Positions 2,780-5,737 of a stretch of 64,000 nucleotides of DNA are shown here, one piece after another. Under the pieces are notes generated by a model. The model did no database searches, was not told the origin of the DNA, and saw only the letters and a program-made list of their open reading frames with translations. The DNA comes from a virus. Location: the IMG/VR virus record IMGVR_UViG_3300033994_001756, positions 96,001 to 160,000 of that record; one strand, given 5' to 3'. Numbering within the stretch: the stretch's first letter is position 1; each line of letters opens with the position of its first letter. Made by a program: the position numbers and the translations under genes.

Positions 2780-2828
2780 AATCAACACCCCTCAAGCCTA
2801 TCGACGATGCTCAAACAGAGGGGTCACT

Positions 2829-3077: not shown

Positions 3078-3231
3078 TCTTTGGTATTGTAAAGATATGG
3101 ATCAGTGGAGGTGGACTCTAACTGATGATCATAGACCGGTTATTAAACAAGAGTCTGGTCAACGTCCCAATCTTCGTGATGCTATGAATGATGTAGCAAA
3201 TACAGTTGAATATCTTCTAGGTGAAAATTAG
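3067..3231 (+). CDS. Small hypothetical protein (54 aa)
   Basis: Read manually: MKINLWYCKDMDQWRWTLTDD...LLGEN; overlaps the previous stop. Confidence 0.65.
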   Translation: MKINLWYCKDMDQWRWTLTDDHRPVIKQESGQRPNLRDAMNDVANTVEYLLGEN

Positions 3232-3236
3232 TTAAT

Positions 3237-3308
3237 CCTCTGTTAGTCTATTGGTAAGGACAGGCAGACAATGCACTTGGAAACTGGGTTCGATTCCCAG
3301 CCAGAGGT
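3237..3308 (+). ncRNA. tRNA-like RNA with aberrant anticodon arm
   Basis: CCTCTG/CAGAGG acceptor stem, D-arm GTCT-ATTGGTAA-GGAC, T-arm CTGGG-TTCGATT-CCCAG; anticodon region GCA-GACAA-TGC is not canonical. Confidence 0.65.
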
Positions 3309-3440
3309 ACTAAGAGCCCTAGACTGATAAACTAGAATGCTGTAGTAAAGGGTGCAACAAGGAACGTTGTATTAAACAAAGGATCCCCTCGGCCACATCG
3401 TAGATTTTATCGTAGGTGGACATTCTTGCCCTTAAAAATC

Positions 3441-3529
3441 GTAGGTGCCAAAACCTCTCGCTGGTCTAGTATTCTGTGGCTGGATGAAGTAAAGAGGGAT
3501 AACATAGGCAAAGTTATTCCCACCTACCA
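3441..3529 (+). ncRNA. Putative structured RNA closed by a 7-bp stem and ending in ACCA
   Basis: GTAGGTG/CACCTAC, CCTCT/AGAGG, TCTAGT/GCTGGA and GATAAC/GTTATT pairings. Confidence 0.45.
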
Positions 3530-3535
3530 CAATTT

Positions 3536-3865
3536 TTATCTATGATACATAGATAAGTCAGAGTGAATTTCACGATGACAATTAGCACAGACAAGAATGC
3601 ATTTTTTTGCTTCCTCTCTTTGCTTTGCTAAAGATGCGGTGGAACCAATAATTCCACCTTCTTTAGCATCTGGGTCTACATGATGAAACTCTAGTGCTGC
3701 CGTGCATTTGTTGTATCCACACATACAGCATTTTCCTCCAGCTTCTTCTTTAATTAAAGATACATTTTTTCTTCTAGTTGCAGATACTCTTTCTGTCATT
3801 TTTTTAGCCCAGTTAGGATTTTTTGCTTTTCTATCAGCATAAGTTCTAGTTTCTTTTTTATTCAT
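3536..3865 (-). CDS. Free-standing HNH endonuclease
   Basis: CCMCGY..LEFHHVDP..CILVCANCHREIH. Confidence 0.88.
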   Translation of the reverse strand: MNKKETRTYADRKAKNPNWAKKMTERVSATRRKNVSLIKEEAGGKCCMCGYNKCTAALEFHHVDPDAKEGGIIGSTASLAKQREEAKKCILVCANCHREIHSDLSMYHR

Positions 3866-3902
3866 GTTGGTATAACTTTTTAAATTAATACCAACTATTT
3901 AT

Positions 3903-4020
3903 TCCCCTGTAGCTCAATGGCAGAGCAATCGGCTGTGGAAAAGAAGGTTCCTTTAGTTCTGGTTCGATTCCAGTTTTTTCCTTAACCGATGGGTTATAGG
4001 TTCAAGTCCTATCGGGGGAG
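3903..4020 (+). tRNA. trnN: tRNA-Asn(GTT) interrupted in the anticodon by a 46-nt insert (3937-3982)
   Basis: TCCCCTG/CGGGGGA acceptor stem with G73, intact D- and T-arms; removing the insert gives ATCGG-CTGTTAA-CCGAT. Confidence 0.88.
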
Positions 4021-4042
4021 TTACCGATAAATATCAGTATCG

Positions 4043-4315
4043 GTGGATACAGTTATGAAATACAAAATTTCCTCAAACTATTGTTACTACAACAATGAAA
4101 TTGTGGAAATGTATTTCATCAACAATGTACCTTTTACTTTTGAAGAGATTCCTCAAATCATGCAGGATGACCCTTACATTCAAATAGATGCATCAAATAA
4201 TCAGGAATATGCTCCAGAAGATTTATATCGTACTTCATTTTATTTGATTGATGAAGAATGTCATCCTTGTTTATTTCCAGTTGATCTAGAAAATCCTGAA
4301 GATATGCCTGAGTAG
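4043..4315 (+). CDS. Hypothetical protein
   Basis: ORF track; 3' end overlaps tRNA-Thr. Confidence 0.65.
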   Translation: MDTVMKYKISSNYCYYNNEIVEMYFINNVPFTFEEIPQIMQDDPYIQIDASNNQEYAPEDLYRTSFYLIDEECHPCLFPVDLENPEDMPE

Positions 4316-5591: not shown

Positions 5592-5737
5592 CTTAAAAAT
5601 TACCCTGGTGGAGTCAACATGACCCAAATAGTCCTCGTCGGATTGGACAGTAAATATGCCGACTGGTGCGGATGAGGAGTGCTTACTCCCGCCTGGTTTC
5701 TTGCCTCCAGTCAAAGGGCAAGTGGCGAGCCTGCAAA
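5578..5737 (+). ncRNA. Structured RNA resembling the cyanophage manA RNA motif
   Basis: GC-rich intergenic stretch with GTCGG/CCGAC, GCGG/CCGC and CTTGC/GCAAG stems; family recalled from memory, not searched. Confidence 0.5.

Follow-up and report, generated by a model that had tools for sequence, protein, structure and literature searches.

The DNA analysed here, referred to as the window, is a stretch of 64,000 nucleotides corresponding to bases 96001-160000 of a complete IMG/VR virus genome of 172,253 bp with terminal repeats (G000), whose nearest relatives by DNA similarity are T4-like Synechococcus myoviruses. Within the tRNA gene cluster of the window lies a tRNA-Asn(GUU) gene (3903-4020) which is interrupted in its anticodon, between U35 and U36, by 46 nt (3937-3982). 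Exon 1 (3903-3936, plus strand) holds tRNA positions 1-35, namely the 5' strand of the acceptor stem, the D-arm, the 5' strand of the anticodon stem and C32 U33 G34 U35. Exon 2 (3983-4020, plus strand) holds positions 36-73, starts with U36 A37 A38 and ends without an encoded CCA. Removal of the 46 nt leaves a 72-nt tRNA-Asn(GUU) with U1-A72 and G73. As a T stands on either side of the insert, both boundaries are equally valid if moved by 1 nt. The initial annotation, made from the sequence alone, had read the flanks as an intact tRNA-Asn with 46 nt inside the GTT anticodon, and this is borne out letter for letter by four other contigs (L002-L005). In these, the tRNA-Asn is identical to the excised gene at 72 of 72 positions (exon 1 being 100% identical), has an ordinary seven-base anticodon loop and is devoid of the insert. 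Elsewhere the same contigs differ from the window, with an adjacent open reading frame that is only 75% identical and other tRNAs that are 76-84% identical.

The split gene was reported neither by ARAGORN without the intron option nor by Rfam at the gathering score. With introns allowed, ARAGORN detects the gene and types it as His by forcing the canonical intron position, which results in a wrong anticodon, and the Rfam alignment (19.8 bits) joins the outer D-arm to the T-arm of the insert. The search for an intact tRNA-Asn that had been proposed at the outset found no second copy in the complete G000 genome.

Several further features are found in the vicinity. A 7-bp inverted repeat (4023-4044, plus strand) follows directly 3' of the split tRNA. 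Just upstream of the cassette described below, an odd tRNA-like gene (3237-3308, plus strand) is called "tRNA-His (atg)" by ARAGORN and scores 29.3 bits with the Rfam tRNA model (gathering score 29); its acceptor, D and T arms are normal and its anticodon-arm region is unpaired. The T-arm of this gene is nearly the same as that of the insert, and a look-alike gene on L040 (1422-1493) stands beside another pair of HNH gene and tRNA-Asn. Derivation of the insert's T-arm from the tRNA-like gene was rejected, as it leaves the homologous inserts of distant phages unexplained. Rfam also reports, above the gathering score, a wcaG RNA (68.9 bits; 5629-5736, plus strand) and an abiF RNA (48.6 bits; 2788-2824, plus strand), the latter immediately 5' of a tRNA-Gly.

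The insert (3937-3982, plus strand), which is missing from the otherwise identical gene of L002-L005 and has homologues elsewhere, is shaped like a tRNA and is referred to as a mini-intron. Its first seven nucleotides (3937-3943; module positions 1-7) form the 5' strand of an acceptor-like stem, and RNase P is predicted to cut 5' of 3937. The D and anticodon arms are replaced by a linker of 14 nt (3944-3957), as read from the sequence. A T-arm-like hairpin follows (3958-3974), with a stem of five positions, comprising four pairs and one U-U, and a T-loop-like loop of 7 nt. The remaining nucleotides (3975-3982) comprise the 3' strand of the acceptor-like stem (3975-3981) and a discriminator-like base (3982), after which RNase Z is predicted to cut. 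All seven pairs of the acceptor-like stem (3937-3943/3975-3981) can form, one of them a G-U pair; the loop UUCGAUU fits the T-loop consensus with a closing pair of the G53-C61 type; and in the alignment to the Rfam tRNA model, 3958-3974 occupies the T-arm with a high posterior probability. Numbered strictly as a tRNA, the insert lacks both a leader and a tail and is in register with both junctions.

This nested top-half geometry of a 7-bp stem, a T-arm with a UUCGAUU loop and a discriminator-like base had been recognised in the initial annotation. It was obtained, in register with both junctions, in only 1 of 2,000,000 composition-preserving shuffles of the insert. The tiny hairpin that had been drawn in the linker with 4 bp and a 2-nt loop has to be revised, as 3944-3953 can form at best 3 bp with a tetraloop and RNAfold does not predict this hairpin in the window; the linker of Sinorhizobium phage phiM12 contains a matching 3-bp hairpin with a GNRA-type loop. 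The folding energy of the insert, whose stem is A-U rich, does not differ significantly from that of shuffled inserts (z = -0.25), so the case rests on geometry and comparison and not on stability. The fold predicted across the junctions is an almost uninterrupted helix containing 1x1 mismatches. The insert is not a genuine nested tRNA gene, as 14 nt stand in for both the D and the anticodon arm, and neither ARAGORN nor Rfam gives a tRNA call.

An assembly artefact, or a random insertion that resembles a tRNA arm by chance, must be considered for a metagenome assembly such as G000, all the more as tRNA clusters are repetitive. This reading is already refuted. A 116-kb contig from a second metagenome (L001) carries a split gene that is identical in all 118 nt, although it belongs to a diverged genome (about 85% alike) from another sample, and a homologous insert is present in three cultured, independently sequenced phages. 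The shuffle test speaks against chance in the same way. An assembly artefact, which the initial annotation had named as a refuting outcome, is thus discounted, and the feature is real, conserved and mobile.

Mobility became apparent from the DNA beside the split gene, where the initial annotation had missed both an adjacent HNH gene and the transfer of the two as a unit. A free-standing HNH endonuclease gene of 109 aa (3536-3865, minus strand) lies 37 nt upstream of the split tRNA, in divergent orientation. Its Cys pairs, His-His and Asn/His motif are invariant across three homologues. The window protein scores 17.4 bits with the Pfam HNH model, which is below the cut-off, and the L007 homologue scores 25.1 bits, which is above it. 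The window protein shares 40-43% identity with the products of the HNH genes directly beside the split tRNA-Asn in phiM12 and L007. Compared with L001, only 7 of 504 positions differ in 3531-4034 (98.6% identical) and none in 3801-4034, while about 14-15% of positions differ in the flanks (about 85% alike). Such identity amid diverged flanks implies that the HNH gene and the split tRNA were recently transferred together. The segment 3531-4034, made up of the HNH gene, the spacer, the split tRNA-Asn and 14 nt, is the footprint of this recently exchanged cassette. A catalytic motif with Cys pairs and the co-transfer of the gene with flanking DNA are what is expected of a free-standing HNH homing endonuclease. 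The block of identity ends in the loop of the inverted repeat at 4023-4044, the first differences being at 4035-4036.

Relatives of the HNH gene at 80 fetched loci have a tRNA-Asn(GUU) within about 0-175 nt in about 50 of the 80, in both orientations and usually uninterrupted, which suggests a nuclease lineage specialised on tRNA-Asn genes. Members of this compact family (L010-L089) are almost always wedged within phage tRNA clusters. As most of them adjoin an intact tRNA-Asn, an HNH gene can be carried without the insert, which is an occasional companion of it.

These observations bring up the possibility of a purely selfish insert that is never spliced. Gene conversion driven by the HNH nuclease would spread the cassette, the insert would destroy the target, and the tRNA-Asn gene would be dead; as a variant, RNase P and RNase Z may yield two tRNA halves and a minihelix which are never rejoined or serve as decoys. 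The tRNA-Asn is indeed intact beside most HNH relatives, phage tRNAs are usually dispensable, and with a recent transfer and exons equal to the intact allele there has been no time for the exons to decay. In the same vein, the exons could be intact because the element homed into functional genes only recently, and not because the genes still function. A selfish, unspliced insert is nevertheless considered rather unlikely: the interrupted gene is the only tRNA-Asn of the genome, and breaking a target requires no particular RNA shape, which is at odds with the conservation found among relatives of the insert.

With the window counted, the family comprises nine lineages, each with a tRNA-Asn that is split precisely at U35/U36 by 45-141 nt. 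The eight further lineages were obtained by pattern scans, blastn and HNH-guided fetching. They comprise the cultured Sinorhizobium phages phiM12, phiM7 and phiM19 (46 nt), whose records annotate the gene as tRNA-OTHER or tRNA-Thr, and L277 (45 nt), L074 (48 nt), L257 (49 nt), L009 (68 nt), L007 (71 nt), L048 (96 nt) and L087/L089 (141 nt). The insert sequences are mostly unalignable among lineages, yet all nine retain the acceptor/T-arm layout at the 3' end, and it is this layout, together with the exact site, that an unspliced insert fails to explain. In the 68-nt insert of L009, the score with the tRNA model comes only through the T-arm. An HNH homologue is present near the split gene in seven of the nine lineages, L048, L074, L087 and L257 among them; six of the seven have it within about 150 nt, L048 at about 400 nt, and no HNH gene was found near the split gene of L009 or L277.

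Other candidates for membership were discarded. A relaxed-pattern scan of metagenomes gave no new member among the matches listed, which were ordinary genes for tRNA-Met, Lys, Arg and Asn preceded by a fortuitous CTGT, or partial 3' halves. L008 is an ordinary tRNA-His, and most intron calls by ARAGORN are neighbouring tRNA genes fused into one. Most of the longer pattern matches (L221, L229 and others) have an anticodon loop enlarged by 12-14 nt and are unrelated to the Asn family. These enlarged-loop genes (L221, L229, L232, L255, L258, L263, L265, L266, L288, L291, L296 and others) form a set of viral tRNA genes in which about 12-14 nt are added after a GTA anticodon, as in tRNA-Tyr introns of the eukaryote type, and four of the contigs are giant-virus bins. 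Isolated tRNA-Met-like 3' halves behind unrelated sequence occur on L125, L140, L147, L149, L156, L172, L177, L187, L193 and L206; they may be attachment-site duplicates or further split genes. In the cultured cyanophages with the closest ligases, S-CREM1 and B23, no split tRNA-Asn of the window lineage was seen, and S-CREM1 gives one contiguous match spanning the anticodon region.

Homologous inserts with compensatory changes, which the initial annotation had named as a check, were found. In an alignment of five mini-type split genes from five lineages, 97% of the cells are paired in the proposed structure, as compared to at most 52% when the partners are slid, and none of 500 shuffles is as good. 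Compensatory double changes occur in four of the six aligned pairs of the acceptor-like stem of the insert and in three of the four pairs of its T-stem, and likewise in five of the seven pairs of the outer acceptor stem and four of the five pairs of the outer anticodon stem. The changes in both sets of helices imply that the insert and the interrupted tRNA are both held in shape. The covariation of the outer helices among insert-bearing genes is a further argument against a dead tRNA gene.

The junctions of the nine inserts differ in how they relate to tRNA processing sites. Both junctions of the window element coincide exactly with canonical RNase P and RNase Z cut positions. Seven of the nine lineages have module position 1 at the 5' junction; in the other two, L048 and L087, a leader of 28 nt separates the junction from the RNase P site. 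A covarying 4-bp hairpin is common to these leaders (L048 2175-2202 and L087 1197-1224). A pseudoknot is possible in L048, where the loop of this hairpin complements 5 nt immediately 5' of the tRNA-like module; no such loop pairing was seen in L087. Only in the window and L009 does the 3' junction directly follow the discriminator-like base; it lies past the canonical RNase Z site in seven of the nine lineages, by 1-3 nt. One extra base, forming an extra pair, is found there in L048 and L087, and a purine-rich tail of 3 nt separates the discriminator-like base from exon 2 in phiM12, L007, L074, L257 and L277. In these five tailed lineages, the tail always has an A in the middle, which faces U33, and positions 1 and 72 form a purine-purine mismatch. 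Whether the outer tRNA encodes CCA did not correlate with membership of the tailed class. The last base of the insert is U in the window and G, U or C in the relatives.

The initial proposal that RNase P and RNase Z make the two cuts therefore stands for the window, where the sites match both junctions, and fails as a general statement. Canonical cuts in L048, L087 and the tailed lineages would leave exons that are not ligatable, with 1-3 surplus bases on exon 2 after the RNase Z cut. With the 3' junction displaced in seven of nine lineages and a leader in two of nine, cutting by just RNase P and RNase Z cannot apply throughout the family. Either the cut site would be shifted in these relatives or another nuclease would act. 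That the junctions of relatives are not all compatible with clean processing also counts in favour of the unspliced, selfish insert.

A further alternative is a true intron whose removal depends on other enzymes. The continuous helix of anticodon stem and insert would be read by a structure-specific nuclease, which might instead measure from the outer tRNA body, and kinase healing and sealing by Rnl1 would follow; an activity of the anticodon-nuclease or RNase E/III type, or a phage protein, could be the nuclease. This is regarded as quite improbable, despite the pairing of the tail with exon-1 bases in the five tailed relatives, where the invariant A faces U33, and despite the purine-purine mismatches that flank the 5' junction, which suggest a common helix-based signal instead of a plain RNase Z site. 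No candidate nuclease was found, a homologue of the splicing endonuclease is absent from three genomes, a bulge-helix-bulge motif is absent, and, on geometric grounds, the 2-nt stagger of RNase III is incompatible with the observed junctions. The conserved, in-register T-loop-like hairpin would also be left unexplained.

The search for rnl and pnk genes suggested at the outset was successful. G000 encodes an Rnl1-type ligase with the C-terminal domain of T4 Rnl1 (G000:C1:1869-3098), an adjacent AAA_33 kinase and an Rnl2-type ligase (G000:C1:164534-165598). The first two belong to a run of three consecutive, RNA-repair-like genes outside the window (G000:C1:1869-3966; L090 670-2767), a set that is rare in cultured cyanophages. 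These are the Rnl1-type RNA ligase (409 aa, T4_Rnl1_C domain), an AAA_33 polynucleotide-kinase-like protein (166 aa) in which no phosphatase domain was seen, and a protein with a cytidine/dCMP-deaminase fold (125 aa). Close relatives of the Rnl1 among cultured phages are confined to two Synechococcus phages, followed by alphaproteobacterial phages including phiM12. Those of the Rnl2 are three cyanobacterial phages (two of Synechococcus, one of Microcoleus), again followed by alphaproteobacterial phages including phiM12. Both ligases are rare in cultured cyanophages, and their co-occurrence with the insert weighs against the selfish, unspliced reading. Among the insert-bearing phages, phiM12 has both Rnl1 and Rnl2, and the complete genome of L009 has an Rnl2-type ligase; the source records of L048 and L074, which were searched as well, are 37% and 13% complete, respectively. 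The kinase gene beside Rnl1, on the other hand, would fit removal by other enzymes, as RNase P and RNase Z do not generate 5'-OH ends, the only ends for which a kinase is required.

Minihelices of acceptor stem and T-arm are substrates of both RNase P and tRNase Z. The initial annotation assumed that exon 1 would end in a 3'-OH and exon 2 begin with a 5'-phosphate, and such ends are indeed directly ligatable: according to established enzymology, Rnl1 and Rnl2 join them without healing, and the C-terminal domain of T4 Rnl1 confers specificity for the repair of tRNA anticodon loops. At most one tRNA gene of G000 encodes CCA, which implies that 3' maturation is endonucleolytic, a host route already used by the phage tRNAs. 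The RNase Z family was detected in a Synechococcus control genome. Archaeal control genomes match the splicing endonuclease family (PF01974), and none of G000, phiM12 and the L009 genome does. To our knowledge, bacteria are devoid of a splicing endonuclease.

The explanation that best accommodates these findings is that the insert is a miniature protein-dependent intron of a mobile family whose target is the U35|U36 site in tRNA-Asn genes of phages. As DNA, it would travel in one cassette with the gene of the free-standing HNH homing endonuclease next to it. The nuclease most likely cuts the uninterrupted tRNA-Asn genes of co-infecting phages, and the insert would break the target site. At the RNA level, the insert would fold as the top half of a tRNA, with the acceptor stem stacked on the T-arm. 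This stacked helix would be recognised by host RNase P, whose cut immediately ahead of 3937 would give exon 1 a 3'-OH end; a second cut, by host RNase Z between 3982 and 3983, would give exon 2 its 5'-phosphate. Held by the outer tRNA body, the two exons would stay together until phage Rnl1, which is of the tRNA-repair type, or Rnl2 seals the anticodon loop, giving tRNA-Asn(GUU) and a freed 46-nt minihelix. The spliced product would equal the intact allele of L002-L005 in sequence. Judged from sequence comparison, a mini-intron that is cut by RNase P and RNase Z, ligated by a phage enzyme and moved with the HNH gene has about an even chance of being correct.

Known classes of introns and RNA elements do not account for the insert. 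As the initial annotation had stated, 46 nt are too few for a group I intron, whose catalytic core (P3-P8) typically exceeds 200 nt. Cmscan of 3200-4100 gave no Rfam intron or ribozyme match at E <= 1, only tRNA matches. Exon 1 ends in U, as expected of group I, but a terminal intron G is not conserved, and no sequence core is common to the inserts of the family. Group I introns in bacterial and phage tRNAs do share with the insert the location in the anticodon loop, the presence/absence polymorphism and the association with homing endonucleases (PMC3984707). A bulge-helix-bulge intron is excluded by the absence of two 3-nt bulges with a 4-bp helix and of the splicing endonuclease PF01974; the tailed relatives have a single 3-nt bulge only, which is displaced from the cut site. 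Small self-cleaving ribozymes (hammerhead, twister, pistol, HDV-like) gave no covariance-model match, and excision by RNase III was rejected because its stagger geometry is wrong.

The claim of a new intron type needs to be narrowed, as the introns of Lak megaphages published in 2019 include a homologue. The "enigmatic introns" that Devoto et al. described in tRNAs of Lak megaphages include one that possibly encodes a tRNA (PMC6784885). Like the window insert, these are located in anticodon loops of phage tRNA genes and are present or absent between close genomes (PMC6784885). The window element agrees with them in being an anticodon-loop insert with an exact empty-site allele and in having a tRNA-top-half fold that ends at the 3' junction. 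The "Tyr GTA" intron of Lak A1 (Table S6) starts and ends like the L087/L089 insert, with the 28-nt leader, the T-arm and the closing stem (PMC6784885). The Lak "tRNA-Tyr (GTA)" call itself appears to be mis-typed, as its exons read as an Asn anticodon loop split at U35/U36 (compared with L087 1161-1376). On this reading of its exons, the "Tyr GTA" intron is a tRNA-Asn member of the insert family. By contrast, the window insert is stripped down to 46 nt, leaderless and located in a T4-like cyanophage. A mechanism, the match to RNase P and RNase Z sites, a linked HNH gene and RNA ligases are all unmentioned in the Lak paper (PMC6784885). By this comparison, the window element adds a minimal form to a kind of insert that has been published without an explanation. 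In the literature searched, excision from RNA is reported for no member of the family and no mechanism is given for phage tRNA inserts of this sort.

Parallels to individual steps exist in other systems. In collaborative homing, as in the S-PM2 psbA intron with the free-standing F-CphI (PMC6083498) or T4 mobE with the I-TevIII intron (PMC2790892), an intron without an endonuclease lies beside a free-standing endonuclease gene and the two are moved together. By analogy, this is the closest DNA-level counterpart of the cassette, although introns of collaborative homing self-splice and the HNH relatives of the window mostly accompany an uninterrupted tRNA-Asn. At the RNA level, archaeal and eukaryal tRNA introns resemble what is proposed for the insert, as they are small, free of ribozymes, cut by proteins and ligase-joined, with exons held by the tRNA body (PMC4090602, PMC3400036). 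The insert differs from them in its position at 35/36 instead of 37/38, in its lack of 3-nt bulges and in its occurrence in phages without the splicing endonuclease. The predicted RNase P and RNase Z ends (3'-OH and 5'-phosphate) also contrast with the 2',3'-cyclic phosphate and 5'-OH of the archaeal and eukaryal pathway. The T4 Pnkp-Rnl1 repair system has its likeness in the Rnl1 C-terminal domain and polynucleotide-kinase-like gene of G000, and the proposed sealing of the anticodon loop would be the same reaction (PMC3400036). In T4, the break is damage inflicted by a host anticodon nuclease, whereas in G000 it would be a programmed step of maturation.

Taken more broadly, the insert may represent a third route of tRNA splicing in bacteria and phages, without a ribozyme or a dedicated splicing endonuclease, in which an intron is disguised as the top half of a tRNA. 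The universal enzymes of tRNA end maturation would make the cuts, RNase P at the 5' junction and RNase Z or a related enzyme at the 3' junction, and the loop would be resealed by an Rnl-type ligase of the phage. The likelihood of this broader proposal is placed slightly short of even. If true, the 46-nt element would be the minimal natural substrate of the route, the split gene would be immune to the linked HNH nuclease, and expression of the only tRNA-Asn of the phage would be tied to the phage's own ligase. Besides such gating by a ligase, the initial annotation had suggested that the insert might hide the anticodon from host anticodon nucleases or release a decoy RNA. The window instance is the smallest clean case, with both junctions at canonical processing sites and an exact empty-site allele, and its homologues in the Sinorhizobium phages are in cultured, genetically tractable viruses. 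If the inserts are spliced, archaea and eukaryotes would no longer be the only groups with tRNA splicing by proteins, a new role would fall to RNase P and RNase Z, and phage RNA ligases would have a natural purpose beyond the repair of nuclease damage. Splicing would also explain why tRNA finders under-count phage tRNAs, as illustrated by the mis-annotation of the window gene by ARAGORN and Rfam, of the phiM12, phiM7 and phiM19 records, and of the Lak relative, to which a wrong amino acid was assigned.
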